A stretch of DNA of 64,000 nt from Psammoneis japonica (lineage: Eukaryota), in the NCBI GenBank assembly GCA_008632985.1, contig QPGO01000062.1, positions 1-64,000 of the forward strand. Direction: 5' to 3'. The notes beneath the pieces are model-generated. The model ran no database searches. It saw nothing but the letters and a program-made list of their open reading frames with translations, and was not told where the DNA came from. A program made the translations under genes and the position numbers. This document shows positions 42,109-64,000 of the stretch, in pieces (within the stretch, counting starts at the first letter, position 1; every line of letters starts with the position of its first letter).

Positions 42109-42957
42109 CTACGTCGACAGTGTCGAACACGGATCTGGCTGCGGCAACGGAACTATGTCTGAGCAAGGCCGAGCAATGTTGGACGACAAACCACTGTTTC
42201 GTCGCGTTCGTCCAGCATAGTCATTAAACACTCCGCCACTGTTGAATTCGTCGCATTCGATACAATCCGCCAAATCGCAGGGGAAATCGTCTTCATTGGG
42301 ATCTCTACCAAGCAATGTAAACTTAAGACACGTTCCAAAACAAAAGTCTCGTGTGTTACGAGTATTGTAATACCACATGGTGGCACAGGATTCTGTAAAG
42401 CCGAGGCCTTGAAGGCATTTAATGGCAAGCGATCTGCTAAAGAGTCCCTTGAGTCCGCACCGTGTGGTGGCACTAAGCAAGTTTGGACCTTGTTCCATAT
42501 AGACACTCAAGTCTTGAAGAGAGGAACAGTATCCGCAAGGAGTATCATGAGTAACGTAACGGTCATCCAGTGCCTCTAGAAGATCTTCATCATCGATAGT
42601 CTCTAAGGAGTACGTGTGGCCGGTGGGACACTGCGAGCCGTCGCCAGGCTTGACGATCTCCACAACACAAAATCCTGTCGTTTTTTCACTGAACCTAGGA
42701 CATGAAATATCTTCATCATAGGGATCACAGTCGAGACTCTTGGACTCTGTCAATTGCAACGCTCGCAAATTTGGAATGATTCCTGAAAAGTCTGTTTCGG
42801 GCTTCTGGTTATCAGCGGGGCATCCGCCTCCATCCGGAATGCAAAAACAGCCTTCACAATCAGCAAAGTCACCATTTCTTCCTAAGGAGGAAGATGTATC
42901 ATGTAAGCATAGAAGAAGAAGCAGGACGATCGATGCAGGAGCTCTTATTGTTGTCAT
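42109..42957 (-). CDS. Secreted Cys-rich protein of unknown function (paralog B)
   Basis: Collinear with and highly similar to 32011-32853; signal peptide. Confidence 0.8.
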   Translation of the reverse strand: MTTIRAPASIVLLLLLCLHDTSSSLGRNGDFADCEGCFCIPDGGGCPADNQKPETDFSGIIPNLRALQLTESKSLDCDPYDEDISCPRFSEKTTGFCVVEIVKPGDGSQCPTGHTYSLETIDDEDLLEALDDRYVTHDTPCGYCSSLQDLSVYMEQGPNLLSATTRCGLKGLFSRSLAIKCLQGLGFTESCATMWYYNTRNTRDFCFGTCLKFTLLGRDPNEDDFPCDLADCIECDEFNSGGVFNDYAGRTRRNSGLSSNIARPCSDIVPLPQPDPCSTLST

Positions 42958-43346
42958 GGTCGAGATAGTCTTCAAAAAGTGCGACGCTGAAATAATGAAA
43001 ACTGAAAGACAGGAAAAAGACGAGGCGTGCGCGCTCTCGTTGTTGTCCGTTGCGGGAATGAAGTTATTCATGTCTTTTGATAGATAATTACCGTTCGACG
43101 ACTCGATGCCGCGCAGACACGGGATGAGTCGGTCGCACATGATTTTGAGAACCTCACACCCTTTTATTCAGACATCCACGTCATCTTTGTAGGGTTTGGT
43201 ACATTTTCTACGTGATTTGAATCGGTCGGCAACACGTGGACACACAAGCTCACAAAATGAGCAAAATGTTGGTAAAGATTTCATGCTCGTGGCTGGTTAA
43301 CGATAAGCCCATAGCCCAATCTCTTTGTCTGACTTCGAGCCAAAGT

Positions 43347-43465
43347 AAGCTAAATGGTTAGTGTAAATCGTTAAGTGTCATTTCCACTTCGACACAAAGA
43401 AAGCTAAATGGTTAGTGTAAATACTTAAGTGTCATTTCCACTTCCATACAAAGACAGCTAAATGC
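43347..43465. repeat. Tandem repeat, ~2.2 x 54 bp
   Basis: agctaaatggttagtgtaaat..ttaagtgtcatttccacttc.. starting at 43347 and 43401, partial at 43455. Confidence 0.85.
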
Positions 43466-43899
43466 TTAACGGTAGTGGTCAGATTTCAAAATCTGAGCAA
43501 TACAGAAATGTCAATGATGAATAAGGATTTTAGATTGCTTCTGCCGTAAATATCATTACGCCAATGCCACTAATGAATACACAAATGAATTTGTATTCCA
43601 TCCTTTTCCTGAACTTTGATCTATCGGCATTTTCGATACGAGCACTCGACGCGATGACAACAATGAGGCATGCTTGTATGTGTCATGGCCATAAGCTGTG
43701 AGGCGTACCGTCACATTTGGATTGAACTCGGGGATCTTGATGTCGAAAGTAGCCATTTGTTTGACATTCGTGATTTTTCATCGCCCACAAACTGGGATTT
43801 CAACTGAGTCGAGTTGATGTTGGACGTGTTTCAAAGCACTGCGTTTGATGAAACAATTGAGCGCTCTGGAATTATGGCATTTTATGCCATGGAGACTTA

Positions 43900-45850
43900 A
43901 AACAGCAAATGGGTTGACAATCAAGCAGTGATCGGGTTTGCCAACATTTCCAAAAATGTGACAACAAAAGTTGCATCACTCAACAACCAACAACATCTCA
44001 AGAGATGGAAGCAAGAAAAGTGACTCCTCTTTGCACTTGAATTAAAAGAGACAACAATGCACAACAAACATTTGAGAAGGACAAGAAGCTCTTGAATGCA
44101 TGGAACCAGAAGAGAGTCAATGAACCGCTCTTGTTCTGAACCTCTTGACCTGTTCTGTCCATGATGGTGGTTGGCTGAAAGGTCGGTGGTGGTTTTTTTA
44201 TGTGACTTGCAGCTTGAGGCATGTTGATGCATGAACACATGGCCCATGTGTGGTGTCACCTTTGGAAAGTGCCACTTGTGGAGCTTGAGTGGACAACTCT
44301 CTGTGCTCAAGCTTTGTCCGCCAAATGCTCCATCAAAGTCCAGATGCTGCCACATCCCACCCGACCATTGACACAAAACAGTTCTTGCAAAATGTTGTTG
44401 CCTGTTTCCCTCTTCCTCTGCAGAGCAGCCCTCTTGGTGACAGTGCTGCCCACATGCCAGAATGTGCTCAAGAATGCTTTCCATTTTGCCGGCAAAGATG
44501 CCCAACGCGGGGCTGTGTGGGCTCGAATCTCTCTCAAGACAAGCTGACATTTGTGCCTGGCACTGGCGGCAATGCTGAGCCCTCCTTCCTGTTTGACTTC
44601 CCAGGAGTGTGCCCAGATCTCCTGCGTGCTGAGTGGCTCAACCACAAGAGTCGCTGTCTTTGTCAGTTTTGTCAGCAGGATGTGCCAAGGCTGCTCTGGC
44701 CATGTGTGCGCAAGGACAGCTGCGACAGCGCTTTCTGCTGTCAGCAAAGAGTGTGAGCTGGCTGGACTGCCCAACCCCACACTTCACAGCTCCTTGGCAG
44801 TCACCCCAAATCAAGTGCCAACTTGGGGTCAACCACACCTGGCTGGTTGCAATGCAAAGACAGCTGTGGCAGCACTTTGTGACAACAAAGAGAGTGCGAG
44901 CTGGCTGGGCTCCCAACCCCACACTTCACAGCCCCTCAGCACTGGCTCCCAATCAAATGCCAACTTGGGGCCAATGGCTGTGAAGCCATCATTGCAAATC
45001 CCTGTGCCTGCCCCCTCACACAGCTTTGCACAGGGTCAACATGTGTGGCCTTTGCAAGATGGGCCCTGGCTGGCTGCTGGCTCCTCAGCCACACGGCTTG
45101 CACAACAAGCCACCACAACACAGAGCACTGTGGGGTGAGTGCAGCACAGCCCAAACAAGCACACCATGCTGAGATCACCCAGAGTTGGCTGCTGTCCTGG
45201 GGCTCCATTCAAAGCTAAGCTGGGCTGCTTGGCTCCTTGGTGTGCAGCACATGCTTGGCATCACATTCTTGTTGCCAAGCAGCCGCATGGCATGTGCCCA
45301 CCATTTGTGCCTGCAACAGCGACCCCAGCCACAAAGAAGCCAACAAAAAGTTGAACCTGGTTTTGTGGTTGAAGAGTGAAGAAACTGTGAGTGAAGTTTG
45401 GTTCAAGATTTGTTGGCAATGCCAAGTGGGCAACCAAAGAGAGGCGCCAAAAATGGCTGTTCTTGCTCATTTCTCAAGAGGAGCTTGCGCTCATGATGCA
45501 GGGTCTGAAGCAAGCACCAGCCAAGACAACAGTTTTTTTCTCTCTGCCCCACTTAAAACACAGCCTTTGAGTCAATGTGGTGCTCCTTCAACAACTCACG
45601 CACACTGGGAAGAGCAGCTGGAGCCAGGGCAGCTGGCCTGGCAGGGCTTGGCTGACACCCAAGCTGGGATGCTCAGCCTGGTGGCACACACTCAGTGCCA
45701 CATTGTCACCCTCCTGCAACTGCAATGTGCCCCACTCTTTGCACCTGCAGCAACCACCCTGGATCAAAAGAAGCCAGTGCAACTCTGGCCATGGTTGCAT
45801 GGTCAATTGTGTGTGTGTGTTCAACGGTTGATTCCCCTCTTTTTTTCTCT
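43900..45850. repeat. Unidentified degraded repeat DNA, depleted of TpA and CpG
   Basis: Composition; overlapping Tyr-free ORFs; short internal duplication (ccaaccccacacttcacagc...aaatcaa.tgccaacttgggg twice). Confidence 0.55.
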
Positions 45851-45934
45851 TTTCCTTTAACCGGCCACGAACATGAAAAAATTGCCAAAATGTTGATGTG
45901 CGGTGACGACCGGTGACTCACTTTTTTTCTTACA

Positions 45935-46748
45935 ATGACGATCAATAGAATCACGATGCGTCTTTTTCTAATTGTACTGGTTTTTCATGTGACTCATGCG
46001 TGGGTACCACCCACCATGGGCTTGGGAGCTATCTTTTTGAAACCACAAGGAATGAAGACCGAACCCAGTTTTGGTGATTCAAGAACGCTCATGGATGCCG
46101 CCGACTTCTTCATGGATGGCTTTTGGTGAGTGAATGTTATTGGGAGAAGAATTGAAAGGTGGTTCCGTTATGGCATGAACTAATTTAGTCTTTTGTTGTA
46201 GGTCCGCAAAGGTTGGTGGCGGGGCCAAGGAATTGTCGGATAGTCAACGAAAGTCGCTTTACGGAAATCAAATGATGGAATTCCAACGTCGGTACGGAAT
46301 GAAAATGAGCAGCAACAGGGACCGAAGATCGGAATTGTTAATTTGTCGCAATGGAAAGAATGAAATCATGGGCGTTGCTGGACTAGAAGTGGATCGGATT
46401 CCAAAAGATTCTCTCAAGGGACAAACGTTGGCACGCGCACCACTCATGAGCAATTTGGCTGTCGGAAGGAAATTTCGACGACGGGGTATTGCGGAAGAAC
46501 TGGTACAACAAGCGGAAAATATGGCACGAAAAGAATGGGGTTATGATGAATGCTATCTTTATGTGGAACAAAGAAACAAACCTGCGATTCGGCTGTATCA
46601 AAAAATGGGATACAAAAAATTATGGCAGGACGATTCGGCAAAGACTCTCTTGCCGACAACTAAGGGTAGTGTGGAAAACACCGACACGACAATTGTCTGT
46701 ATGAGGAAGCGACTGAATGGAGGTATTTTTGGAAGATTTTTCTCATGA
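45935..46748 (+). CDS. GNAT-family N-acetyltransferase, probably plastid-targeted (2 exons)
   Basis: Motif A SNLAVGRKFRRRGIA; N.PAIRLYQKMGY. Signal peptide ending HA|WVP. Intron 46126-46201. Confidence 0.85.
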
Positions 46749-46807
46749 GTAGTTCGCTACTGCTCCGTTTTGACTGCCCTTAGGCGCTAGATAGTGCAGA
46801 GGCGCCG

Positions 46808-48700
46808 CTAATAAAGTAAATCGTTCATTTCTTTCTTGGTAAACGCGACAGCGTTGGGATTGGATGGTGTCCAGATGGAGCCAAATTCGCTTTTCGGCAC
46901 CAATCGATGGTGTAGCATAAGATGATGGTCACTGTCGTTTGATGAAGCAACGTCGCGTCCCGCCTTGCTTTTCGTACGGAGGAATAGGAGTCCAGGTGAC
47001 ACATGCGTAATGTGAAGCTTGCACATGTGTTGCATCCAGACGTCATATTCATCTTTAGTGTCAGCACGCCTCGATGCATAAAGTTCTGCGCCTACGGAAT
47101 GTTGATTTGTAAACAAGATTCCACATGCTGTTGGCCCTGATATCTTCGATGGTACCCACCACTGTTGGATGCGCCAAAGCAATTTATGGTCGTCTTGCAC
47201 ATTCTTTGTTCCTTCACCATGTTCCACAGTGGAGGACGAGAAGGATGTATCCCCTGTGGGTGGATTCATAAACTCTGAAACAATCGCAAGTACACCATTG
47301 TGAGGATTGAGCACTCTGGATGCCAACTCTACAATTTTCCCAAGAACCGCTTCTCCATCTGATCCCCCGGAAGAAAACAGCCCGTACCGTTGGGCAATGT
47401 CCTCCTCTTGAGGAGGAACGGGAATAAAAGGTGGGTTCGCCAACATGATATCAAAGAGCCCGTCCTTAACCAAGTCATCCACCAGAAGAGAATCGTTTTC
47501 TGAAGCTCGTGCGTAGTTGTCAAGGCCGAGGTCACGAGCTTTACCTGAAACCAAATCTCCCAAGACCACGTCGACACGATTTCCCATGTCGTTTAGCATG
47601 GCATTGAATTTTGTAAAGTGCAACGCCCGTTCACTGCAATCAACGCACAAGGCGGTGGCTTTCGGATCTATTGATTGCATAGCCATGAGCGTGGAAAGAG
47701 CTTGGATCCCGCTTCCAGTGCATACATCTAGTATTCGTCTGGGCAATGTTGCTGCAGCTGCGCCGACAGTTTGTTCAAGTTGCTGCAACTCCAACTGATG
47801 CTGAACCAAGGCCAACGAGTCTGGTCCAATATACATGACAGTCCCGTGGTTCCGAGTACCAACCGTTGTGGTGGATAACACTCTCGGATGCAAATCTGTA
47901 ACTAAAAACAGAGTTGCTGGCTTGCCGGACGACAATACCGAAACGTCCAGAGGAAACACGTGCACATACGGAACCACAAGTTGCTTCTCAATCTGGCAAC
48001 AAAATGCGAGGCCCAGTTCTTCTAGTAACGCTACTGACTGCTCGCCACCCGGAAGCGACTCGATCATGGTCTTGCGAGGAACTGAACAGCATCAAATCAA
48101 ATTCAGGAACCTTGAGCTAATATTATTGCGTCAACAACTCCATCTTCAAAAAGCAAGAGGTGGCGTACCTGATATCCCCAATAAAAAGAGCGTTACCAGA
48201 CACTGCAATGATGACGGTTCAGCTTCGCCAAGAAGCGGAGATAACATGGATGAGCCAGCTATGGGTGGCTTTAAGAAAAGTGGACCATTCGCTAAGAGAT
48301 TTTCGGTTCGAACCCCAAACATTTTGGCGACACTGGCATTGTTGTAGTCGCTTTGAAGCAGTAATTCTCGAAGTTGTCGTATGGAATCTTCGTTGTTCAG
48401 AGGACAGGCAGCGTCGTGGCGTTTGGGCGTATCCGGCGATGACGCTATTCTTGTAGCTGCAGTCAAATCGTCGGGTCGTAGCAAGGACTGGTACATTGAG
48501 AGGGCTGCATCATGACCCAGTTTTGTGCGACAATACCTAGCTTCTTCAAAGCTTGTCGTTTTCTCATGATTAACGTGCAAAGGAGAGTCTCCCGCAAAGG
48601 CAAAGCATGCCGAATATTCCCAGAACAAACCACGTGACAGAAACCCCAACAACAAGCAAATTCGAGGAATGATTCCACGAGAATAAGAACTATATCTCAT
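46808..48700 (-). CDS. Class I SAM-dependent methyltransferase, HemK/PrmC/MTS-like (2 exons)
   Basis: ILDVCTGSGIQA, ANPPF and VMYIGPDS motifs. Intron 48082-48168 joins the two ORFs in frame. Confidence 0.85.
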
Positions 48701-49112
48701 GTGTCACTTTCTCCTGTGCAAATGCCTTGGTCTAGAACAGTATGAAAAGGGGCATGTTCACTCTAAGAGACGATTTTGCAGCACGCAGAAAGCTGAAAAC
48801 GCCATTGCCAAGACTTATGCCTTATGCGTGCGCAATGCGCAACGACGAGAGGGCGTTTTACGGCTTGGTTTGTTGTGCTTTACGAAAATCTAGCTAGACA
48901 AAGATAAGAGCCATGCATAGTCTACTAGCTAGAGGCCCTACCATAGCTAGTACCTTAGGTGGTAGTAGCAAGTAATCATCAATAGCTCGAAAGAATGGCG
49001 CATTGGCGCTTTTTGGAGCAATGAGCTGGGATTTTTCAGACCACGTTTCGCTGGACCGACGCAGACTGCCTTCAACGAGAATTTTGTTATCTGAGGAACC
49101 CATGTATATAGT

Positions 49113-50478
49113 TCACCGCTTTCCCGCATCACCATATTTGCCCCAACTAATGGATTGTAGTTCTTTTGGAAGTTTTGCTGTCCATTCTTTTGCCTTGCAA
49201 AAAGGGAGCTCTTGTAGCTCGTTTCCATTTGACAAATTATCCAAAATGTGATAGAAACTATTCAACTCGTGTACGAGATCAGATGAGCTTCGACGACTGC
49301 CGATGAAAGCCGATCGAGACCGCGACACCAATGCAAAATCACGAAAGTATGAAAACTGGTCAAAGGGACCATGTTCGACGGGTCTGCCTGGATGCCTTAA
49401 TTCATCCTTTGTGGCTTGCACAAACGTCATATTTCTCTCAACCAGCCACGCTTCCAGCTTTTCTAACGTACACTTTCTGTCGGACATTGCGCGCACCTTG
49501 ACTTTTGGTTTCGCTTGCAAGCCTAGTTCATGAAAACAGTCAATTTCACGTTGTATATTGCACCCTGTATCATTGGCAAAGACATGTCGCGACTGTAGTC
49601 CAACTGTAAAGACGTCCACATCACTATCCGTCCATTCACTGTCGGGGATTCCCTTGATGGATTCGCCGGCAAAATCAAAACTATACCGAAAGACCATTCC
49701 GTATAAAAAGAAGTAGCCAAGCAACAAGAGTCCCTCTTCCAATTGTGTGCTTGTACTATCTAAAAGCCCTTGTCTGCGCCACGTTGCAAACAGATTCAGG
49801 TCTAACCCCCCTACAGATTTGAATAGAACAAAGCGTTCGTCGTCGCCATCCTCCAAGGCCAATTTATCTTTCCAATCACTGTACAATGGTAACCAGGGAG
49901 CACGGTGCAAAACTTGACTACAAATCTCTTCCGTAAAGTTTCGCGCGACTTTGCAAACTTTGGTCGTTTTTTGAAAGGTCTCACACGCCTCTGGATTCCA
50001 GTACTGTACAAGGAGCGTGCGATTGGTCAAGATTGCCAAAATCAAGTCTACAGACAAGCGTGAGCGACATAGAAGAATTCTAATGAACAAGTCAATCACT
50101 CTTACCACTGGCAAACATGTGAAAAATATTGCCAGCCCGGAACGGGCACTGATAGAAGGCTACCGCAAAGCTGCGGTGATTAGGATTTTGCTCCAGCGCA
50201 TGGACAGAGTGTTGTTGTATATAACGTTCCATTATTTGAATAGGTTCAGGGAGATCCGTTCTATTGTGCTTTACGATGCCTTGCAAAGGATGCGTCCATC
50301 TACTAGTGTTCTTCTCGTTCGTTCTGACGACATCCCAAACTTCCGATCTCAATCGAAATCCAGATAACAATACAGAAATGTATCCAAACACAAGTATTCT
50401 AATCAGGAAACGCCAATTGTAGATAAGCCGCTTTTGCTCGGTTTCTCGTTCCGATTGCTTTTCCATTGTGTTCGCCAT
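49113..50478 (-). CDS. Putative fucosyltransferase-like glycosyltransferase, type II membrane (2 exons)
   Basis: N-terminal TM. CPFRAGN, LAILTNR, VGLQSRH, MSDR and FIGSRRSS motifs. Probable intron 50048-50105. Confidence 0.6.
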
Positions 50479-50832
50479 TGTGAGAACACCGAGACATCAA
50501 TCATCAATCTGGAATCGCCAAAAAGAAAAAATGTGAGGTTGATCACAAACGTTTTCCTTTATGGTTTGCTGTGCTTTCAGAATCGAAAACGTAGGGCGGG
50601 TGGGCATAAACAAAAGAGGTCATTTCTTTAAGTCATTATGCCTAAAGATATGTGGACTTAAACAATTAGATGTTGCGTACATAAAGAGTATGAAGGGCGG
50701 GACATAAGTGACAAATGCCTGTCTCACAAATGCCCCACTTTTTTGTTGTTTCGCCGCATCATCAGAAAAGAATGCTTTCAAAGCCGTGAATCATCGAAGG
50801 CGAAACTGAAAACGAAAACATCGATAAGAGAA

Positions 50833-52476
50833 ATGGAGACACAACGATACTACCGGACTGCAACTGTCATCACTACATGTCTCTTTTTCATATGCTTTCT
50901 CTTTAGTCCCGACATCGCCTATGCTTCCCCGCTTTTTCAAAATATACGAAACATGGAACTCGAAGGAAGGCACCTTCTATCGAGGACTGCAAACCCCACA
51001 AACTCGTCTCTTGGAAAGTGCCAAGGAAATTGTCGAGGGAACGATGCTTTGTGTCTTCACAGCCTTTCATGTTTTAGAAGAGACAATAGAGAAGCGGTGC
51101 CGGGATGTTCGGGTCGTGGAGCGCGACGAGTCGACTATTGCTATCAACCTCCTAAAGGAGTTCTAGTCTATGTGGGCGACCGAGATCCAATTACGGGGAT
51201 AATTGTACCTCCGGAAGCAATCTTTCCTCTAAAGGTGTGCAGCGGCCATTGCACCTCCAATACTGACTGCAAAGGTTCACTTGAATGTTATACTCCCGTC
51301 GGCATACAAGTTGTCCCTGGGTGCAATTCGACTGGCATTCCAGGAAAAAGCTACTGTTATGATCCGTCAACCGCCGTCCCACCATCATCTGGGACACTTT
51401 CACCAGCCCCTACTATAGATCCTGGCCAAGGTGTTGGCTTACCCGTGTTTTCACCCTCCCCTACAATTGCTGTCGCTGCAACTTTTGCACCTACAACGCC
51501 TGCTCCAACAACTCCATCGCCGACAACCGCTGAACCATCAACGTCAGCTCCGACAACCCCAGCCCCTACAACCCCCATGCCGACAACATCTATGCCAACG
51601 GCTGCACCAACATCCTTTTCAACTCTAACTCAGAGTCCAACTTCTCCACCGGAACTCCACCTCAAGGGCGGAGTCGCCTCCGCACTGAGTTTAGGCCTCT
51701 GTGAGGGCGACTGTAATGGCGAAGATGGTCTTTGTGAGTTTGGACTGACTTGCTTTATCCGGTCTGCAGTAGAGCCGGTCCCCGGATGTCTAGGACAAGG
51801 TTTGAGCGGTGCTGGGTACTGTCACAAGCCAGTTGATAATAGCACGCTTGTGTATTTAGGCGAAGATGGATACCAGGAAGACGAAGACGGACGAAACGTC
51901 TTTCCCTTGCGTGAGTGCGCTGGTGACTGTGACGATGATTGGGATTGTGAGTCGGGCCTTCGTTGCTGGTTTCGTGATGTATATGAAATTGTTCCTAATT
52001 GTGTGGGAAAAGGTGTACAGGGCCGCGACTATTGTTATCGGCCTCTTGAGGATGACGAATTGCACGTGCACAGCGCGGAAGAAATTGAAGGTAAAGCAGC
52101 GGGGAGGGTTAACTCGGGAGGAGGTGATGGGTTGTCTCAGGCAGCGGTTATCTCTATTATTGTCATTTCCGTTGTAGCGGCCAACATAATCCTTTGTGTA
52201 TGCTGCAAATGGCTGCTGTCTCGCGATCCCACAAGACCTGTCAAAAATGTCAACCACGATGAAGCTTCGGAAGGACTTGTCAGCAAAACTGCACCACCAC
52301 CTCCTTTAGAGGCCGATGGTGGGATCCTTCTTAAGTCGGTTGAATCTGGCGAAAGTCCTGACAATGGCAAGAAGAAGAGCAAACGTGCCACCAACAAAAG
52401 CGTCAACTTTGCCGAGTCAATTAGAGAGTTGGGTCGGCTGAAATATGACGGAGACGACGAAAACCGAATAGCATGA
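50833..52476 (+). CDS. Frustulin-like protein (4 acidic Cys-rich repeats, Pro/Thr linker) with C-terminal TM and cytosolic tail
   Basis: C[EQA]GDC..D.DC...L.C..R...VPGC.G.G...DYC repeats; signal peptide; TM AVISIIVISVVAANIILCVCC. Confidence 0.8.
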   Translation: METQRYYRTATVITTCLFFICFLFSPDIAYASPLFQNIRNMELEGRHLLSRTANPTNSSLGKCQGNCRGNDALCLHSLSCFRRDNREAVPGCSGRGARRVDYCYQPPKGVLVYVGDRDPITGIIVPPEAIFPLKVCSGHCTSNTDCKGSLECYTPVGIQVVPGCNSTGIPGKSYCYDPSTAVPPSSGTLSPAPTIDPGQGVGLPVFSPSPTIAVAATFAPTTPAPTTPSPTTAEPSTSAPTTPAPTTPMPTTSMPTAAPTSFSTLTQSPTSPPELHLKGGVASALSLGLCEGDCNGEDGLCEFGLTCFIRSAVEPVPGCLGQGLSGAGYCHKPVDNSTLVYLGEDGYQEDEDGRNVFPLRECAGDCDDDWDCESGLRCWFRDVYEIVPNCVGKGVQGRDYCYRPLEDDELHVHSAEEIEGKAAGRVNSGGGDGLSQAAVISIIVISVVAANIILCVCCKWLLSRDPTRPVKNVNHDEASEGLVSKTAPPPPLEADGGILLKSVESGESPDNGKKKSKRATNKSVNFAESIRELGRLKYDGDDENRIA

Positions 52477-53109
52477 GAAACCTAAATAATGATATAAGTA
52501 GCTCTTGTCCTTTAACTTGAATTGTGAATGATCTACAAGTGCGGTTTAAGATACGGCTCTAGCTCTAGAATGTGGCGCTCGCTACTACGGTAGCTCCCTA
52601 GCTAGACTACTTCTACTCTAGCTAGCTAAAGGTAGCTACTGTAGCTACTCTAGCTCTACTGTCATGTACAAAGAGAGTTTGATGTTGAATTTCAAAACAG
52701 CTTCTTGTGAATGTATATTTTTATGATACTTTAGTACCGCCAAATGTTACTTATGTAATGAGAATCTTTTTACTTATGGACAACTGAAAACGAGAACATT
52801 GTTGGTTCCCGCGAAACGCAGAAACAATTAGGCCCGTACAATCAGTATTATACATGCGTGCATGAGACAAAATCGATGCTGCTGACACATCTCTCCCTCT
52901 TGCTCGTGTTGCCGACGCGAATCATATCCAAAGCAACACGCGAATCCCGAATCACAAATCCGCAAACAATGAACCATAAAACATTCCGCACGACACACCC
53001 GTGTTCAACAAAACACCACAGTAAAACCATGAACAGTTGCTGTGCCTCGAATTCGAAAAAGATCAAAGGGGGTAAAGATCGACGAACAAAACCAACCACA
53101 CCGAGGACG

Positions 53110-55206
53110 ATGCCGCCTCTCGTGTCATTGTTGATGCTGGTCGCGTTCTCCGTTTCACCATCTTCAGCTCAGGAATCGTTCAAAAAATGTGGTGGAGATT
53201 GCCGCGGTGACGATATGCTGTGCGACTTTGGGTTAAACTGTTACTTTCGAGAGAACGAAGAAACCGTTCCTGGCTGTGAAAAAGAAAGCGCAAAAGCCGG
53301 TAAAGAGGAAAGTTTGTGTTATGAGCCACCTCCAGATACTCTTGTTTATTCTGGTGACGATTACAATGGTATTTACTTGCCTCTGGATACTTTTCCTTTG
53401 AAGGCGTGCCAGGTAAAGATTCTATCCCTTTTTCTCTGAGAATCGAAAATGTGTTTGTGCAAACGTCCTCACTTGAACGATGTTTTGGTCCTATCCTTTC
53501 TACAGGGTGACTGTGATGAGGACAATGAATGTGAGGGCACACTGCTTTGTTTCCAGCGTGATACGTTTGAAGAGGTATGTGTGAAGGAGCTATTTCTTCA
53601 AAAATGTAGCTTTTGTTGCTAACCTGCTTCTTTCTGAATTCATCGTCAGGTTCCAGGTTGTGTCGGCAAAGGTGGCGAGGGACGAGACTATTGTTATGAT
53701 CCAAAGAATAACAAGAACGAACAAAAGCCACCACCAGTTGAAGAGACACCAGCACCATCGCAAAAACCGAAAACCAAACCGAAAGAGACTGAAGCTCCTA
53801 CACAAAAGCCAAAAAACAAGCCAAAAGTCACACCAAGCCCGACAGAGGCACCAAAGACTAAGCCTGCTAAAGAGACCGAAGCTCCAACAAAACCCCCAAA
53901 GAATACGAAACCTGCTGCTCCCAAAACGACTGCCCCGACCGCGGCTCCAAAAATAAAGAATCCACCAAAAACATTGGCACCAACAAAAGACGGATCAGGA
54001 AATCCCCTCCAACTTACACTGCTCGGTGAGTCGTTGAAGCCTTACAGCATTTGCGAAGGGAATTGTGAAGGAAATGATTCATCTTGTGGGAATGGACTTT
54101 CGTGCTTTGTTCGCAAGTGGAAAGAGCCTGTCAAGGGTTGTGAAGGAAAAGGGGAGAAAGGGGCTGATTATTGCTACGTACCTCCCCCTGGTGTCCTTGT
54201 CTTTACCAGCTTAACAAAAAATTTACTTGACAGGTGCGAAGGCCAATGTCAAACTGACGATGATTGTAAGGACGGGCTCTCATGCTTCGTCAGGCAAAAA
54301 GACGAGAAAGTGCCTGGATGTGAAGGAATTGGTATTGATACTGTCAATTATTGCTACAACAAGAAGGATGGCGCATCACCTGCCACTACGGTGTCTCCGA
54401 CCGCAACCCCGTCAAAGCAAAAGAAGACTCCAGCACCATCCAGCTTGGAGACTTCTTCGCCTACAGGGCAAAACAAAAAGACTCCAAAGCCTTCAAGTAT
54501 GGAAACGTCTTCGCCTACAGCGGCTCCGTCAACTCAAAAAACGAAGAACCCTAAGCCTTCCGGTTCGGAAACGTCATCTCCGTCGTCAACAATGTCCCCT
54601 ACGTTGCAATCAAGCGAGGCACCTACGTTGGACTCGACCTTGGAACCCACGCTGACGTCTAGTCCGTCACTCACGTCGTCTCCGTCTGGAGTCAACAGCA
54701 CAGAGCCAAAGATCCAACTCATGACAATAAAGGCAGAACCACCAATGTTGAGTTTAGGCGAATGCGAAGGACGGTGTTCTGATGATCTGTTGTGTTCCCC
54801 CGGACTCTCATGTTATTCTCGGCGTGCCACGGAGTCTGTGCCCGGATGCCTTGGCGAAGGTGATACGGGCGTCAACTATTGCTACAAGCCTCCGGCTGAC
54901 GTTCTTGTCTATGTTGGCGACGATTTTGACAGGGATGTGTTTCCACTACCTGAATGCGCCGGCGACTGTGACGACGATTCTGATTGTCAGGAGGGCTTGA
55001 GGTGCTTTCTTCGTGACTTCTTGGATCCAGTTCCTGGGTGTAAAGGTCGGGGCATCATTGGCCGTGATTATTGCATTAATCCAAGTTCATCGCCGTCTCC
55101 GTTGGGCAGCGGTCTTCCCGGATCGGGGTCAATGGCTCTTCGCCCCCCTAGACTTTTGCCAATGCTACTGGTCGGAGCATCGTTCGTCGTTGCCTACATT
55201 CTGTGA
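53110..55206 (+). CDS. Frustulin-like protein (6 acidic Cys-rich repeats, Lys/Pro/Ser/Thr linkers, hydrophobic GPI-like C-terminus; 3 exons)
   Basis: Same repeats. Introns 53413-53505 and 53575-53649 restore CQGDCD and EVPGC and join in frame to ORF 53974-55206. Confidence 0.85.
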
Positions 55207-55375
55207 TAGATAAGGAATGTCGGTTCCGATACAGCGTTTTACTTTGCTCTGAGCTTTTTGTGAATGCGGGCTCAGTTGTCCAAGGCTTCGCTTCTTCATA
55301 ATCGAACAGGTACCAATACTTCTCAAATGAATCATACTTTTCTAGAGTCTTCATAATGTGGAATAACTACTCCAT

Positions 55376-56455
55376 TCAATCATGACTAACACTCGATGTC
55401 CAGAAAAACCAATCAATGTTGTACTGCAATGTGCTTTCGTGACCGGTCCATTGCGGACCGAGGAGGAGAACAAACAGAGGGAGAGCTTGGGTTAAGAAAA
55501 CCTCCATTGCCAAGATGTAGTTCAAGCGGCGTATCTGGTGCACGTCTCCCTTTGCGCTAGCGTTGCCACGTTCAAACCCCAATTGCGCTTGAGTAAAGAA
55601 CCCGGCTGACATTGTCAACGTTGAGTAGAGAGAGAATAGAACAAAAAACATTTCCTGACTAGGAGGAACTCTTCTCGGTCGAACCGCCCAGTTGAAAATT
55701 ATTGAAGCGTTCTGGATGATAGAGAGTATTGCCGGTATCAAAAAGCAAACCAAAATGACATCGCTTACTTCGGGTGGGCCGCCCACATATGACTGAAGCA
55801 ACTTTGATTTCTGAATGGGACCACGTGGCGCGTATTGCAGTATTGCCTTTCCCCATAATGTGTCTTCCCATGGAGTCAAAGAGCGCGATAACTCATTGAA
55901 ACAGGCTGCGGCCGAGAAGACGTAGAGAACGACCGAAAGCAAAACCAAAATGAACCTTAACAACTGTGAGGAAACCGTCACACCCAACGCCGCCAAAGAC
56001 ATTGCTGAAAACTCAACCGCCGGAACAACAAGACACGCCCATGCTTTGACGTGCACTCGCTGACTACAGCCATATCCCTCATGTCTCGTCGGGTGAGGAA
56101 CTAGCCAGAGCACGCTAGCATTCAACAGGACAAGTGCCACACCGAGTGCAGTCAATGGAGTTTCGGCGATTTTCTCAAAGGTGGGCGTTTCCCGAGGAGG
56201 AGGGGGCACGCATAGATAGGCCAAATATGGAGCAAAGATCAATAGCAGTAAGCCCAAAATAATGTGAGCAGCAAGAGCGATGGAGGAGCGGGGTTTTACG
56301 GGGTCTGAACTTGGTGACGTGGCTGTAGCGATGCTTTGACGGAGATAAAAGGCAATGTGTTTTTGATGTTTTCGGACGATGGCGGCAACTCTAACAAAGA
56401 GCCATAGTACTGTTGGGGCTGTCAACAGGGTAACAAAAACATTATTTGGATCCAT
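55376..56455 (-). CDS. Multi-pass membrane protein of unknown function
   Basis: 359-aa ORF with about 8 hydrophobic segments and normal composition. Confidence 0.65.
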   Translation of the reverse strand: MDPNNVFVTLLTAPTVLWLFVRVAAIVRKHQKHIAFYLRQSIATATSPSSDPVKPRSSIALAAHIILGLLLLIFAPYLAYLCVPPPPRETPTFEKIAETPLTALGVALVLLNASVLWLVPHPTRHEGYGCSQRVHVKAWACLVVPAVEFSAMSLAALGVTVSSQLLRFILVLLSVVLYVFSAAACFNELSRSLTPWEDTLWGKAILQYAPRGPIQKSKLLQSYVGGPPEVSDVILVCFLIPAILSIIQNASIIFNWAVRPRRVPPSQEMFFVLFSLYSTLTMSAGFFTQAQLGFERGNASAKGDVHQIRRLNYILAMEVFLTQALPLFVLLLGPQWTGHESTLQYNIDWFFWTSSVSHD

Positions 56456-56736
56456 GATGCATCAATGAGTGCGCACTTCTTCAGGCATGCGTCACCAGTC
56501 TTTTGAAAGGAAAAGAGCATAAAAAATACACTGCAGATGAGATTCTCTTCATTTTTTATGCTCCGAATATTTTATTCTGAGCAACGCTTTATTTAAATTA
56601 TCCCGACACAATGTGGGACATTCAGAGCAAATAAGAGTTAATTAAGGCGATAACGCCCACGCAGAGCACAATCAGAGTAAATTTGGTTATTCGGAGCCAT
56701 AGAATTTTATTTAGAGCATTGTATCCAGAGCATTAA

Positions 56737-57676
56737 CCCTTTGACACATGGCCACTATTTGGGGCCTGGCCCCAAATAATGCGCCATCCTGATTGGTCTA
56801 AATAAATAAATCCATAAGTAAATTTTGGCGGGAAAATAACGGCTAAATCGCTTGGGGCCTGGCCCCAAATAAGGTTCGAGTGACGAATGTGCTCGAGGCA
56901 TTGAAAGATTTTCATGGCTGTTTACGTCGATTGTTGCACTGGTGTGTTGAGCGATCACACGCGAAAAATCAGACGAGAAAACGAGATTTTTTGCCTCCGC
57001 AACAGCGTCCAAAGATGGCGACTCGACCGACATTTCGGCGGCCGGAGAAAATGGCGGGAAAGCTGCAACCGTTATGTAGGAATCTCAGATTTCAGAATTA
57101 TTTGTTGGTGGAAACAAAAAATGAAAAGGAATGGTTGAAAGCACCGCATGGCAACAAATGTCAAACCACCATAAGTTCGATTCTTGTTTTTACTTGTTGA
57201 CGCAAAGTCAAATCTTACGGTACCAAAATGATCAACAATCAACATGAAAGTTACGATTTAGATTAAATTAAGCATGGTTGTTTTGATCGTGTTGTTTTTA
57301 TTTATCTCAGACAACGACAAGGTGGTCGCCGTGTCGCCAACCTGACATTGTCAATTTCCCCCTGATTTGCCGTGTTGTTACTCGTCTGTGATTGACACAC
57401 CGTTGATTCGGATAGAAAACAATTATGTGGCTAAAGTATTAACTAAATAGACACACATAAACACATGGAGTTTATGCTGTGAAGACCTGTCAGAACAGAG
57501 AGCAAATGGGGTCTCGCGTCCTGAAACCGCCATTGTCGAGTCGTCGTGGTTCCCGTTCGCAAGAGCAGGCGTCGTGCTCAAATCGTGGTCGTCAAGATTC
57601 CGTCAGACAAAATGTCTGACCGTTAAATTCTTGTTTGGGGCCTGGCCCCAAATGAGCAATTTCATGTGTCAAAGGG
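56737..57676. mobile_element. piggyBac-type non-autonomous element (MITE), 940 bp
   Basis: Perfect 14-bp TIR ccctttgacacatg / catgtgtcaaaggg. Flanks TTAA (56733-36) and TTGA (57677-80). Three internal ttggggcctggccccaa near-palindromes. Confidence 0.9.
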
Positions 57677-58151
57677 TTGATTTGTAAATTAGAGCATTGT
57701 GCTGACATTCAGAGCGCTGCTGTGATTGTGTCCATTCAATCAGAGTGCACTGTGCTCGAAGAATTGAGTGTAAACGAAAGTACAACGAAGTTCAAAAGGT
57801 GAAAATTATGAGAATTATTTCTGCGCAATCATTTTGGGTTTCTCCGAACGGGTTCTCAACAGCCCGAACCTTTTGCACTGCTCCCACAGACAAAAGGCCT
57901 TTCGGAGAATGTGATCGTGACGACAGATTGTCCGGACACGATTGACATTGACACGTAAGATGTCAACATCATCGTACGATCGCATTTGCGATTCTCGACT
58001 TCCAATCACTTCTGTGTGACTGATCTGTGCTTCGTACGAACCCACGATTGACGTGCGATTGAAGCACACTTTTGTTTGACATGTGGGCACACATGTGCAA
58101 CACGCACATGACAATGCATGTTGCATTCGCCTCCCTAATTGCACATTAGAG

Positions 58152-61100
58152 TTAGTCGTTAAACGGCATTGTTCGACGAATGTTGACAGTGTCAATGACG
58201 TCACCGCGTTTGATCTGCACTGTGCCATTGGCACGCACCATTGTTGTCACATGCGGTCCAACACAGGGCTGTTCTAATTTTTGCGAGTCTTTCTCGAGTG
58301 GTGTCTTTTCTCCCACTCTGTGCGTGTGAGGAGTGCGTCGAGCATTCTCTCGAGCGTCATTTTTATTTGTGATTTCTTGTTTTCGCTGCTGGACCAATTT
58401 CCAGTCCGCGACATGTTGGACGTCAAATGTCATGTCTCGTTGAAGACTGGTTGTCCTGGTGTAGCTTGCGCAGCAGCATGACACGCAGAACGTGCTGCAA
58501 ACGCCACCGCTGACAGCATTCCAGCGAAAGGATCCTCAGCGTCTAGAGGTGCATGTTGCAAATCAAGCGCACGGAGCATGCTCCCCAGTGCTTGATGCAC
58601 GCGTTCAACAATTGCGTTTGCTTGTGGATTTCATGCAGTTGTGGGCTTGACTTCAATGCCACAATCATCTTGCACCATTTCTCTAAATTGGTGTCCGATG
58701 AACTCACTTCCACGGTCACATGTAATTGACGATGGCCAAGGATGTCTGCTCAGCCATGTTCGTTCTAACAGTCCAGCTGCAGTTGTGGACTCCTTATTTG
58801 GGATTTCCACAACTTCAAACCATCCGGTTGCTGGATCGATCACAGTTAAACATTTCAGGACTGGGGGTTTTTCCTTTCCCTTACGACGTATTTTGTATGG
58901 CCCAATGAGGTCCACACACAGTCGTTCCCATGGTACGGATTCTGCGCACTTAGGAGGTAAATGTCCATGTTTCTTGTGTTTCTTTTTGAATTTTTGGCAC
59001 GTCTCACATCTCGACACGTATTTTCGTATGTCTTCACGTAAGGTGGACCACCATAGGTGTTGTGAGATTGTTTCTTCTGTTCGATTTATGCCAGGGTGAA
59101 GAAGGTACGTATGATACCAATCTATCACTGCCTTTTGTAACGTCCTCGGGACGACAATTTTATCCTTATGACATATGAGCAACCGGTCTCGCTCGCCTCC
59201 ACGAAAAGTCTTCGTATGAAACGTCTTATTTGACAATTGGGAGAGAATGTCTTTGTCCCGTTTTTGTTCATAATCAAGAACTTTGTAATTTAACGGAAAG
59301 ACATTGTCGTAGGATTTTGGTAGGACCTTTTCAGCTAGCTCTTCTGTGCTGAGGGTTTCCATAGGTTCTATTTTCTTCATAGTAAGTCGGCTAATCGCGT
59401 CTGCGACAATATTTGCCTTGCCCTCAAGGTATATTATTTTGGGACTGTATTCTTCTATTATTAGACGCCAACGCATGACTCTGTCCGTTGTGAAATTTTT
59501 GTGTGTGAGATTTTTGTGATCCGTATATATATTTATCTGTTGGCCAAACAGTATATTGCGGAACTCTTTTAACGTCTCCACTGTGGACAATAGCTCTTTT
59601 TCCGTTGTAGTATAACGCGTCTGCGCTCCATTCAGCTTGCGGCTGTAGAAGGCAATTGGTCGGTTTTTCTGAGTAATAACCGCCCCCAATTGAGAATTAC
59701 TAGCATCGGCACATGTCTCAAAGGGGATGTTAAAATTCGGGTGTGACAATAGTGTGTCTTTGGAGATGATGCGCTTCATATTTTCGAAGGCTTTTTGTTC
59801 TGTTTCGGTCCATTGCCACTTTGCTTGGGTAGAAGTGAGTTTGGCTAAAGGAGCTAAAACATGAGATCGTCGAGGCCACATGTCTCGACAGCAGTTGATC
59901 ACACCGACAAAGCGCCGCAATTCCTTGCGAGTTTTAGGAGTTGCGATCGCGTGAATCGCTTCTACTTTTTTTGGAATCGGACTGATGCCCTTGCGGGTGA
60001 TGTGAAAGCCTAGATAGTCTACTTCGGGTTTAGCGAAAAAGGACTTCTCGGCGTTGACCTTCAATCCTTCTTGTTCCAGGCGTGAGAACACCGTTTCAAG
60101 CTTCTTGAGGTGGTCTTGAAAATCACTTTTTGCAAGACACAATGTGTCGTCAACGCAAGTTCTGACGAACTCCAGACCTGCCATGAGCTCACTCATGTGC
60201 TCTTGGAAAACATCTGGAGCTCCACAGATTCCCATCGGGAGTCTACAGTGCTCACATTTGCCCCAAGGCATGACGATCGTGCACAAGCGACGTGCACGCG
60301 GCGTCAATTCGACATGACAACATCCCATGTTTAAATCTGGGGACGTTGCACACATGAAGCCTTCAAGCTTCTGCAGCATGTCCTGAACATTGGGCAGAGG
60401 AAACGGAGTGCGAACCAACCTCTCATTTGGCTCACGAAAGTCGGACAAGAACCGAACTCTGCCATTTTTCTTGGGTTGAACAAAGGTTGGAGCCGCCCAT
60501 TCAGAACAATTTGTTTTTCTTAAGACTTTCAACTTGCACAGTCTTTCAACCTCCTTGCGAGTGGTCGCCTCCAAGGCTTGTGTCACGGGAAATGGTTTGG
60601 CATGACACGGACTCACGCCCGATTTCAACTTTAAATCCACCGGTTTCCTGGTCCATTTGCCCAGAGAACCATCGAAAAGGTTTTCAAATCTTTTTAAGAG
60701 GAAGTTCAGCTGCTTCTGCTCTTCAGGAGTTAGATGAGCAGCTGCTGCGGTCACATTGTTGAGGTTTGCAGCGTGACAGTCTGAGTCAAGGATCCGATTG
60801 ACCCTGTCATTAAGACCAATCACTGCACGAGATTCCTCAATGTGATCGGCAATCAACTTAAAAACATCGGCATCGAAGAGTGCATCAACATTCTTCACAG
60901 GAGCAGTTGCATCTTCCCATTTAATCTCTTCATTCGAGAAGTCCAACATTGTCCCAAGACTTGACATTAAGTCGCGTCCCATGATCATGTCATGATGACT
61001 CGAAGAAGAAGGGGAGTCATCAACACACGCCGTTGCTTCAATCATCTTGTGCTCATCAAATTCGGGCAAGGAGAATTGGATCTTACATCGACTGTCAGTC

Positions 61101-61222
61101 GTGAAGAGCCCTCCTTTGGTTTCCCAGAGTTTGGTGGCGGATGCTTTTGTTCTGAGTTTCCGCGTGAATTTGCGCAAAATTGTGGTTGACGATGTTCCGC
61201 TGTCGAGGAGAATGCGCAGAGG
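58152..61222 (-). pseudogene. Gypsy pol (protease, RT, RNase H, integrase)
   Basis: LLDSGTS; PMG...CVDD; ADAS...EKELL...YTDHKNL; H..L.HPG...C..C; DRGSEF. In-frame TGA at 58631 in PTTA*NPQAN, and TAG just upstream of the protease motif. Confidence 0.9.
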
Positions 61223-61350
61223 CTATTTTTCGCCTCACCTGATGAAGTGTTCATATGGGCGACAACTGCTGGACTAGCATGAATTACTTTGGCCCTTTTT
61301 CTGGGCTTCCTAACATCCAGCAGAGCGCAAGACTCCTCTTGCGGTGCAAG

Positions 61351-62541
61351 TCATTCCTCAGAATCACTGCGCGTCATTTTTTCAAACTGACAATTTTCCT
61401 CGTCAAGGGTGTCAGAATCACAATCTTTGCTCTTGTGTTTTTTGTCATTGTTCGAAGAACTCGCCTTGAGTGTTTTTTGAACTGCTTGGATCGCCATGGC
61501 ATTCAACTCTTCTTTGCGAGCGGCGTTGTCGTCATCGCGACGAGACCACGTGCGATTGCCATTTGAACGGCGCCGTTTCGGGTCGGGTTCACAGTTCCCA
61601 CGGCGTTCTTTCGCAAGTCTTTTGATCGACCAGCACTTGTCCGTGTTATGAGTGGATTTCTCGCATGAAATGCACCACTTCTCGGACTGAGATTTTTCGG
61701 CACCATGTTGGTGACCATTTTTGGAACCACGTTGGGAACCACTCTTGGCTTTTGATGCAGCACCGCCACTGCCATCAGCCTTGGCATGAATGCCATCAAA
61801 TGTGTCTTCTGCGACCTCCAGGCGCTCCAAGAACTCAACCAACTCGTCACAGGTATGTTTCAAAATTTCGAAACCCTGGACGGTCGACTGACGCTGCCAC
61901 TTTCGAGGTGCAAGGTTGAAGAGGATGTCCTTGAGCTCGTCGTCCTCGATCTTCTGTTCCTTCCCAAAGGGAGGATAGAACTTGAGGTCTTTGTTGACTT
62001 CCTGGACCCAAGCAGCAATTTCGCGTACTTTCATGGACTCCGGCTTCTTGAGATCACGACGCAAATAACGTTTCTGCACCGAAAGTGAGTTCTTGGGAAA
62101 CACATGCCTCGTGAGATGTTGTGGGCATTTCTCGAAGCTTCCTTCCGCAGATTCGTCTTCAAGGTTCGCTGCCGCATTCTCGAAAGCACGCAGAGCGTCT
62201 CCTTGAAGTAACATGCGCATGAGACGAAACTCATCAGATTGCTTCCTGATGTTCTGGCCCACTGGAAGTTGATCGTAGCTCTTGAGAAATTCGATGAACT
62301 TGGGGACACCTTGTTTCTTGCAGTGCTCAACATTGATGGTGCAGGTGCGGCTATCCTTCTTCTCGGGATGAAAACGTTGCTCCATCTTGAGGTGCTGGCT
62401 CGGTTTGAGGCTCTTCGGCTCGGAGTTCGATTCCAGCGGTTGAGGGACGATTTTCTCCTGCCTCAACGAAGTTTTGGCGTTGGTTGCATGAGGTGAAAGC
62501 TTCATCTTGAACTTGTTGCCTTCTGTGGTGTGTGTGCACAA
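61351..62541 (-). pseudogene. Gypsy gag
   Basis: QKRYLRR..KKP and zinc knuckle CISCEKSTHNTDKC; located between the 5' LTR and pol. Confidence 0.85.
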
Positions 62542-62924
62542 TGCACTGTGCTCGAAGAACGAGTGTAAACGAAAGTGTGACGAAGTTCAAAAGGTGAAAA
62601 TTATGAGAATCATTTCTGCGCAATCATTTTGGGTTTCTCCGAACGGGTTCTCAACAGCCTAAACCTTTTGCACTGCTCCTACAGACAAAAGGCCTTTCGG
62701 AGAATGTGATCGTGACGACAGATTGTCCGGATACGATTGACATTGACACGTAAGATGTCAACATCATCGCACGATCGCATTTGCGATTCTCGACTTCCAA
62801 TCACTTCTGTGTGACTGATCTGTACTTCGTACGAACCCACGATTGACGTACGATTGAAATGTGCTTTTATTTGACACATGGATGTACATGTGCAACACAC
62901 ACATGACAACGCATGTTGCAAGAG

Positions 62925-64000
62925 CACGACTCTGAATGATGTTTGGATGCCCGTGGAATCTCCATTTAATTAGAGCAAAGCTCTGAATGAACAATGGACA
63001 TCCAACTAGAGCAAAGCTCTGAATGAACAACGGACGACGACAGCCTCTCCATTCAAACAGATCACAACTATGAACAAATTTGCTGATGCTCTGAACAACT
63101 GTCATTTACGAAGCTGTGCTTCGATTGACTCTGTCAACAAACACATCCGCCGAACCCTGACTGTGCCGGTGAAATCAATCCCAAGCAATTGCACATCATG
63201 TTGCGTCGTGCGCATGTGTTGCGTTGCCTCATTGTTTGTTGTTGTTGTTTCGGGTTGTCCTTCGGCGCCGTTTGTTAGATGCAGCTGACATGGTCTTTTG
63301 ACAACACTGCACACACAATGCAAACCTGCAATTGCAAGAACCATTCAATGCATTCATGCAAACCCAAACTGCCTTTCTTTGTCCAACCTTGCAACTGCTT
63401 GATCCAAAAACAACATCACACTTTTCGCCACAGCATTTTGCAGGGAACAGTGGGTTGGTTTTGAAGCACGCTTGAGCAAAATATTTTCCGTCATCTTGAT
63501 GGACCAAGGCATGGAACAAGTGAGCCTCCTCGCACTTGCACTGCAAACACAAACAAACAAACACAATTGGTTTGTGTGCGGGAACAAGACAACACAACAA
63601 CAGGCATGCCAAATCAACAATGACGTTTGCTCTGCACCTGCGAATTGCAAGCAGTTGTTTGATCCACTTGAGCCACAACGAGTGTTGCAGTTTTGTGTGT
63701 GCGTTTGTCATTTGCTGTCTTTGTCTTTGTTGCAAACAAACAACAAAGTGAGAGGTGATGTTTCCAAGATGCTGCGCACAATCCGCACGACTTCATCATG
63801 CATTCTCACCGCTTTGTTTTGCAATGGATTTGACAATGGTTTAGAGTGGTTGGCTGGTTGAGTCTGCAAAAGAAATGCCATCATGACACACATTGAATGC
63901 CGTTAGATCAACTTCTCAATGGCAATCCGGAGCACCAACAATGCTCTCACCTTTTCATTTGCGCCATTTGCCATCGTCTCTTCGACCTTTCTCATTGCAA
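62925..64000. repeat. TpA-depleted repeat with a Cys-rich (zinc-finger-like) ORF remnant at 63229-63735 (-)
   Basis: Composition; C.GEKC...VWVC.NA...C.FALC..C pattern. Cys counts are inflated by Tyr>Cys changes. Confidence 0.45.

Follow-up and report, generated by a model that had tools for sequence, protein, structure and literature searches.

The first 64,000 nt of contig QPGO01000062.1 (assembly GCA_008632985.1, Psammoneis japonica), referred to here as the window, carry a Ty3/Gypsy long terminal repeat (LTR) retrotransposon at 57746-62920 whose two LTRs are no longer identical. The question that this locus raises is which mutational process separated them, when it acted, and from which ancestral bases. 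We estimate a probability of about 0.8 that the DNA of this element has undergone real, post-integration hypermutation that changes A:T to G:C specifically at TpA (TA) dinucleotides. The element is identified, and placed on the minus strand, by its direct LTRs, a target site duplication and the order of its pol domains. The duplication is the four letters AGAG, read directly at 57742-57745 on the left and again, identically, at 62921-62924 on the right. In element orientation the 3' LTR (57746-58125, minus strand, 380 nt) and the 5' LTR (62542-62920, minus strand, 379 nt) were both delimited by alignment and both have the form TG...CA. A polypurine tract, also read directly and purine-rich on the minus strand, adjoins the LTR at 58126-58140; its position gives the element's orientation as minus, and the open reading frames (ORFs) agree.

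The LTR pair as a record of mutation

Global alignment of the two LTRs (57746-58125 against 62542-62920) gives 26 substitutions, every one a transition, and a single 1 nt indel at 57764. Pyrimidine-purine (YpR) steps account for 24 of the 26, although these steps make up only 208 of 380 positions (hypergeometric P = 2e-5), and 21 of the 26 fall on TA when the A or T allele is chosen at each variable site. The TA-related states among aligned YpR steps are TA/TA (four sites), TA/CA (five), TA/TG (four) and CA/TG (five); the CpG-related states are CG/CG (22), CG/TG (two), CG/CA (one) and CG/TA (one); and the unchanged steps are CA/CA (28) and TG/TG (32). If TA is taken as ancestral, the LTR at 57746-58125 has 13 TA-site changes, eight T>C and five A>G on the plus strand, and the LTR at 62542-62920 has eight, three T>C and five A>G, so that both strands are represented, with 11 T>C and 10 A>G in all. 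These counts match an earlier note on this sequence, which reported about 25 substitutions and one indel, all transitions, about 21 of them on reconstructable TA, with TA sites hit on both strands, one site often CA in one LTR and TG in the other, and most CpGs intact in both LTRs (here 22 of the 26 CpG-involving steps); the sequence examples that it quoted are all present in the alignment.

The changes are clustered, 15 of the 26 lying within 58055-58115. Three, at 57765, 58104 and 58115, are best read as CpG decay. The A/G differences at 58064 and 58087 fit neither TA loss nor CpG decay; at both, the A that became G follows a purine (A or G) and stands directly before the T of a mutated TA, and both are in the same LTR, each beside a T>C change.

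The sole other long repeat pair in the window serves as a control for this spectrum. It joins 32001-32860 to a partner at 42100-42960 by repeat alignment, lies in TA-normal DNA, and has 83 transitions and 46 transversions with TA/TA intact at 22 steps, as against 26 transitions and no transversions in the LTR pair (Fisher P = 7e-5). The two copies are the starts of paralogous ORFs, separated by 10.1 kb and 85% identical, and their differences have an ordinary spectrum; TA-free blocks at 34001-42000 and 44001-46000 lie between and after them.

Both LTRs of one insertion are copied from a single template, and the differences between them therefore arose later, in chromosomal DNA. An LTR pair is in this way a built-in, polarity-free record of post-integration change, and one that permits site-by-site comparison with CpG decay. 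The loss per LTR copy is estimated as about 0.53 for TA and about 0.064 for CpG, a rate ratio of about 11 per site, under the assumption of equal and independent sites. Divergence between the LTRs is 6.9% overall (26/379) and 1.2% at non-YpR positions (2/172), and both of the non-YpR changes touch a mutated TA. LTR dating of this element is inflated at least six-fold. The earlier note had drawn the same three conclusions, that mutation took place in genomic DNA after integration, that it runs faster than CpG decay, and that dating by LTR divergence is inflated here; the first follows from the 26 differences within one AGAG-flanked insertion and the other two from the rates just given.

It could be argued that the two LTRs acquired their differences from other, differently mutated copies through recombination or gene conversion, in which case the pair would be no clean insertion clock. 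The family is certainly abundant. In run X1, the only run that contains the stretch, 5219 contig pieces fall on it, and summed word depths, which indicate abundance and not copy number, are 6000-11000 in the element and 59-71 in the unique stretch 56001-56534. Depths of about 1400-2000 in the left flank (56535-57602) and about 1000-2250 in the right flank show that the element was inserted within another repeat, and one X1 contig connects 57741 to 62921 with four shared letters, like an empty site, although this is weak support because its shorter side has only 26 letters. The clustering of changes at 58055-58115 and a spared middle part of the element at 58950-59750, which could be a converted tract, also suit an origin by conversion. 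The LTRs nevertheless differ by no transversions, even though transversions separate this copy from others at 90 places, and the 4 bp duplication is intact. We therefore regard conversion as improbable, and even if it took place the imported changes would be products of the same TA-loss process in genomic copies. Neither a second copy of the family nor another LTR pair was found within the 64 kb window, and no same-family copy was among the protein-search matches, the best pol match being 59% identical.

A base-calling or assembly artefact, through which a modified base at TA in silenced DNA would be misread as C or G, is a slim prospect. In its favor, run X1 may be the assembly's own sample, and only 54% of sampled 31-letter words of 57000-63600 are present in the X1 contigs. 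A 10.7 kb X1 contig, however, matches the unique flank with no differences, 875 contig pieces are at least 99% alike, and contigs assembled from exact words require accurate reads. Differences among family copies are also dominated by transitions (745 transition and 90 transversion places), and in the available text of a preprint on Bigelowiella natans this signature appeared de novo in Illumina data from that species (bioRxiv 10.64898/2026.01.13.699255).

Polarity of the changes

The direction of change is not readable from the LTR pair alone, because CG>TG or CG>CA together with CA>TA fits the same 24 YpR changes. This is the spectrum that cytosine deamination would leave if methyl-CpG decayed to TG or CA and a second, CpA>TpA change acted as in the repeat-induced point mutation (RIP) of fungi, making G and C ancestral and TA derived. 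It can account for 24 of the 26 LTR differences, as C>T or G>A in a CpG or CpA step, a CG can be reconstructed at 15 of the 26, the three sites assigned above to CpG decay are best read in this way, and CpG is indeed lowered in the TA-free blocks of the window (29 versus 51 per kb). The pol homologues, the turnover of LTR sites, base composition and other family copies all point in the other direction, and they make cytosine deamination a very unlikely source of the pattern.

The pol ORF (P0001; 58631-61222, minus strand, 863 aa) includes a protease region, reverse transcriptase, RNase H and integrase, as recognized by Pfam and by its homologues (RVT_1 at residues 250-408, RT_RNaseH at 471-592, Integrase_H2C2 at 691-747 and rve at 766-859), and it stops early, inside the integrase core. 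Alignment with 120 homologues that are 51-59% identical to it yields 397 columns conserved in at least 80% of sequences. P0001 deviates at 66 of these, and 53 of the deviations are single-nucleotide steps, among which TA>TG accounts for 20 and TA>CA for 11, and one more could be either TA>TG or a transversion. There is no CG>TG, CG>CA, CA>TA or TG>TA among the 53, so that 31 TA losses stand against no CpG decay and no TA gain. The effect on tyrosine is severe: seven of the 24 conserved Tyr residues are kept and 17 are changed, ten to Cys, six to His and one to Phe, as compared to 49 changes at 373 other conserved residues (Fisher P = 1e-9). The reverse replacements are absent from the conserved columns (His>Tyr 0/8, Cys>Tyr 0/7), and the residues Trp (15/15), Cys (7/7) and Arg (23/24) are retained; neither the survival of Trp and Arg nor a frame of 863 codons without an internal stop is expected from cytosine deamination. 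A T precedes each of the Ile>Val (four), Lys>Glu (three) and Met>Val (two) changes, and CCA is the codon at all three Leu>Pro changes. Conserved Tyr is lost at all nine positions within residues 77-356, the saturated part of pol, and is still Tyr at seven of 12 in the stretch 58897-60016.

Site turnover and composition give the same answer. TA sites in the LTRs are changed on one side in nine cases and intact in four, and CpG sites in three and 22 cases respectively (Fisher P = 6e-4). Five CA/TG doubles are observed, where turnover at these levels would produce about 2.5 if the ancestors were TA and, given the 22 intact CpGs, about 0.05 if they were CG. An LTR reconstructed with TA ancestors has 19 TA and an observed/expected ratio of 0.58, close to the 0.57 of unaffected blocks of the window, whereas the CG-ancestor reconstruction has a TA ratio of 0.16, with CpG at 8.2% of dinucleotides, and is unlike unaffected window DNA. 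TA is depleted, not enriched, in the affected blocks, to 0.03-0.09 of expectation, and RIP-type creation of TpA is seen neither there nor in pol.

The earlier note had held TA to be ancestral and TG and CA derived, which these several lines of evidence support, and had proposed polarizing the differences with other copies of the family. The family copies in run X1, for which 40 of 851 variable places are listed, do this in part. They have A at 62577 and 62579, where the LTR at 62542-62920 has G, and the base in between is G in the other copies and C and T in the two LTRs. Five loose ends of X1 contigs have CA at 57751-57752, where both LTRs have TG, as would be expected had a single TA received two different hits. 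TA is thus favored at two places or clusters in the LTRs, and not at 57765; the C form is the common one there among the family copies, and the LTR change is accordingly CpG decay.

TA-poor blocks across the window

The element is one part of a wider pattern. The window is a mosaic of sharp blocks, about half of it almost free of TA: TA occurs 24-62 times per kb in 1001-11000, 28001-34000, 42001-44000 and 46001-57000, and 0-10 times per kb in 1-1000, 11001-28000, 34001-42000, 44001-46000 and 63001-64000. The depleted blocks (31.5 kb) average 5.4 TA, 29 CpG and 205 CA+TG per kb, and the normal blocks (29 kb) 40 TA, 51 CpG and 150 CA+TG, so that the balance in depleted DNA is a loss of 35 TA and 22 CpG per kb and a gain of 55 CA+TG. 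CA+TG reaches 190-240 per kb in affected blocks. The same contrast is present within the element, where the part at 60100-62500 is saturated and nearly TA-free (0-5 TA per 200 nt, versus 10-15 expected) and the part at 58950-59750 is mostly spared (11-18 per 200 nt, near expectation). The 3' and 5' LTRs have seven and 11 TA (observed/expected 0.25 and 0.37). The gag-like ORF (P0002; 61351-62541, minus strand), taken from the ORF list and belonging to no Pfam family, lies in the saturated part with 0-3 TA per 200 nt; its translation shows a CCHC-like Cys/His stretch and its stop-to-stop frame continues into the LTR as far as 62586. No clear TGG-type primer site was seen beside 62541 on direct reading, which did not extend to tRNA complementarity.

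Depletion is not confined to the element. The TA-free right flank at 63001-64000 (0-2 TA per 200 nt from 63121) is part of the repeat that received the element. The two flanks, 56535-57745 and 62921-64000, belong to one repeat, and only the right one is TA-free, so being repeated is insufficient for hypermutation.

These observations weigh upon the possibility that the changes preceded integration, through ADAR-like A-to-I editing of the element's RNA or through errors of reverse transcription. Some damage in the internal region could indeed predate insertion, the TG at 57751-57752 is common to both LTRs and stands against CA in five other contigs, and ten near-fixed differences that set this copy apart from the family lie outside TA and read A>G on the sense strand. 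But the LTRs differ at 26 sites despite their common template, hits are shared evenly between the strands (11 T>C and 10 A>G), and both the non-element flank 63121-64000 and transposon-free stretches are TA-free as well; an origin before integration is accordingly most unlikely. Least credible of all is that selection against TA or a foreign base composition, and not mutation pressure, produced the pattern, since, although TA is under-represented in most genomes and also in the unaffected blocks here (observed/expected 0.57), conserved Tyr residues of catalytic domains have given way to Cys or His, the pattern extends to non-coding LTRs and flanks, and the two LTRs of a single insertion differ.

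The TAs that survive in depleted DNA reveal a preference for the following base. They are followed by A, as in TTAA and CTAA, in 45% of cases, versus 23% in normal DNA, and by T in 8%, versus 28% (chi-square on flanks, P = 3e-25). LTR hits agree, with 12 of 28 TAT sites changed and nine of 48 other TAn sites (P = 0.03). The process prefers TAT over TAA, a preference not found in the available text of the B. natans preprint (bioRxiv 10.64898/2026.01.13.699255), and this ranking of TAT as most and TAA as least affected is a fingerprint with which candidate enzymes can be tested.

The strands are treated alike, the depleted blocks having 3271 CA and 3188 TG. There are no strand-coordinated tracts of the kind that a single-strand deaminase would leave: the ratio (CACA+TGTG)/(CATG+TGCA) is 0.95 in depleted and normal blocks alike, and CA minus TG, counted per 100 nt, has a variance of 1.14 in the former and 1.44 in the latter. 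The two-hit TATA motifs of the LTRs are all same-strand (4/4), four cases being too few to interpret.

The largest nearly TA-free block, 11001-28000 (1-10 TA per kb versus 57-76 expected), contains a degenerate Copia element with an integrase-like frame at 14655-15560 and an SH3_retrovirus domain within 15197-18307 (Pfam gag_pre-integrs and SH3_retrovirus). Its integrase is a small replicate of the pol pattern. One conserved Tyr is kept and three are changed, to C, H and H, and the single-step deviations are five TA losses and four or five CpG decays. Among its named matches, 13 of 15 are from diatoms (including Cylindrotheca fusiformis and Nitzschia inconspicua) and two are labelled as a bacterial metagenome bin.

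CpG has mostly been lost too from the TA-free block at 34001-42000 (0-9 TA per kb), in which 36001-41000 has 1-16 CpG per kb where 52-66 are expected, and 221-242 CA+TG per kb as against about 125. Compared with the other blocks, this part has either a greater age or heavier cytosine methylation. The smaller TA-free block at 44001-46000 has two and seven TA in its two kilobases. No Pfam family was found in 38 further ORFs of the TA-free blocks. Long stop-free frames with no Pfam family are present, for example at 15197-18307 (plus strand), 11519-13618 (plus strand) and 20004-21350 (minus strand). TAA and TAG cannot survive in these blocks, with the consequence that long false ORFs appear on both strands, and the long frames of 11001-28000 on both strands are probably artefacts of TA loss and not genes. 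Short tandem repeats in the depleted blocks had been considered as a clean replicate and were set aside as too old and of mixed spectrum (73 transitions and 59 transversions in 675 aligned nt, with 11 CA/TG doubles).

The proteins encoded in the window have no near-identical entries in the protein collection: pol reaches at best 59% identity, the Copia integrase 63% and a methyltransferase 48%. This last is an intron-less ORF of MTS/PrmA type at 46808-48091 (minus strand) in TA-normal DNA, with best matches 46-48% identical, and all of its matches for which an organism is given are from diatoms (Chaetoceros, Fragilaria, Thalassiosira, Discostella and Mayamaea). Together with the Copia matches these hits point to a diatom or a near relative, and not to B. 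natans, as the probable source of the DNA. An ORF at 28027-30096 (minus strand) has a thrombospondin type 3 repeat; at 28718-29683 within this ORF a 120 nt unit is present five times, in diverged copies (63-79% identity) placed 123-429 nt apart.

The probable process and its known parallels

The best-supported account is that the Ty3/Gypsy element inserted in minus orientation into another repeat, with a 4 bp target duplication, and that its chromosomal DNA then became subject to a process whose A:T to G:C changes are almost confined to the dinucleotide 5'-TA-3', TG resulting from hits on one strand and CA from hits on the other. The two strands are hit equally and independently. Each LTR was hit on its own, and some 19 former TA sites now show TA/TG, TA/CA or CA/TG, while 22 CpGs are intact. 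The action is regional: it has wiped TA from sharp blocks that hold decayed transposons and make up about half of the window, has saturated half of the element and has largely spared its middle. A slower CpG decay operates in the same DNA.

Several observations weigh against this account or narrow it. Five of the 26 LTR changes are off TA, three of them involving CpG and the others being 58064 and 58087, and the clustering of changes departs from the equal and independent sites assumed in the rate estimates. The left flank, though the same repeat as the right, keeps near-normal TA. Family copies polarize the LTR differences directly at only two places among the 40 of 851 that are listed. At 36 listed places in the element nearly all other contigs differ from this copy, and just six of these are TA losses, whereas ten are T>C outside TA and eight are transversions. 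The window itself may have been assembled from the sample of run X1, in which case the check on base calls is not independent. Finally, T>C change through a modified thymine mispairing with G would give the same pattern as deamination of adenine. As to the 36 places, near-fixed differences between this copy and the other contigs are probably for the most part differences between subfamilies. We note beside them an excess of T>C outside TA (ten, equivalent to A>G on the sense strand of the element) over C>T outside CpG and CpA (one), which may be a subfamily signature or the trace of an older and different bias. The modified base 5-hydroxymethyluracil, present at TpA in dinoflagellates, was considered and dropped as an identification because the named homologues are those of diatoms and no modified base was seen; it remains only as an alternative chemistry.

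TpA-specific hypermutation of the element after its integration suggests an enzyme, which may serve to defend the genome by acting on silenced or foreign DNA. The best candidate would be a DNA adenine deaminase of ADAT2/TadA type, whose product, inosine, is read as G. The natural target of ADAT2/TadA, A34, follows U33, and this arrangement matches the 5' T required here. There is no ADAT2/TadA gene in the 64 kb window. Amphioxus ADAT2 is reported to deaminate DNA (PMC10354150); the literature consulted shows no activity of ADAT2/TadA on double-stranded DNA at TA.

More tentatively, and with somewhat less than even odds, a diatom or a close relative may possess a targeted adenine-editing defence of its DNA, a 'reverse RIP', like that of a chlorarachniophyte. 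Silenced mobile DNA in the chromosome would be recognized and its 5'-TA-3' sites, TAT best of all, converted to TG on either strand until the sequence is scrambled. Such a system would be ancient or would have spread among marine algae, and its enzyme would be a natural A-to-G editor of double-stranded DNA; a natural DNA editor of this kind would interest base-editing research. There are practical consequences of TA hypermutation as well. Dating by LTR divergence is wrong in genomes where it occurs, erasure of TA creates false ORFs, and the replacement of Tyr by Cys or His hides transposon proteins from Pfam.

Several known systems share features with this process. Like fungal RIP, it is a regional, transition-only and dinucleotide-specific hypermutation of repeated or mobile chromosomal DNA that destroys coding capacity. 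The direction is the opposite, however, as RIP changes C to T and turns CpA into TpA, whereas here TpA is destroyed and A:T becomes G:C. Because of this reversal the process introduces no stop codons and eliminates two of the three kinds, and it raises G+C content. Decay of methyl-CpG is similar in that TG or CA arises from a palindromic YpR dinucleotide on either strand, but in this LTR pair it accounts for only about three of 26 changes, at a per-site rate about 11 times below that of TA. Editing by ADAR or APOBEC that is fixed by reintegration also leaves clustered transitions in retroelement copies; that editing precedes integration and affects one strand, whereas here the LTRs differ from each other, both strands are hit equally and flanking DNA is included.

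The nearest relative is the process described in B. natans. A literature search outside the subscription journals found one prior report of TA-specific A:T>G:C hypermutation of chromosomal DNA, this 2026 preprint on one chlorarachniophyte. In mutation-accumulation lines, 230 of 231 mutations in two integrated viral regions were A>G or T>C, these A>G and T>C mutations were all on TpA, and they arose at about 6e-7 per site per generation (bioRxiv 10.64898/2026.01.13.699255). Mettrop et al. (bioRxiv 10.64898/2026.01.13.699255) count 124 TpA-poor clusters in that genome and find reverse-transcriptase and DDE domains over-represented among TpA-poor coding sequences; they propose that the enzyme is an ADAT2-like deaminase, and their Discussion gives ADAR as preferring a 5' U. 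The terms LTR, retrotransposon, diatom and CpG do not occur in the available text. The B. natans changes, as described there, were shown de novo at two single-copy viral insertions in a chlorarachniophyte, whereas those described here are deduced from an LTR pair and protein outgroups and affect abundant LTR retrotransposons. In both, the process is regional, consists almost exclusively of A>G and T>C changes, and acts on TpA to give TpG or CpA according to the strand. A second independent case, here on LTR retrotransposons with diatom homologues, would make TA hypermutation a general phenomenon.

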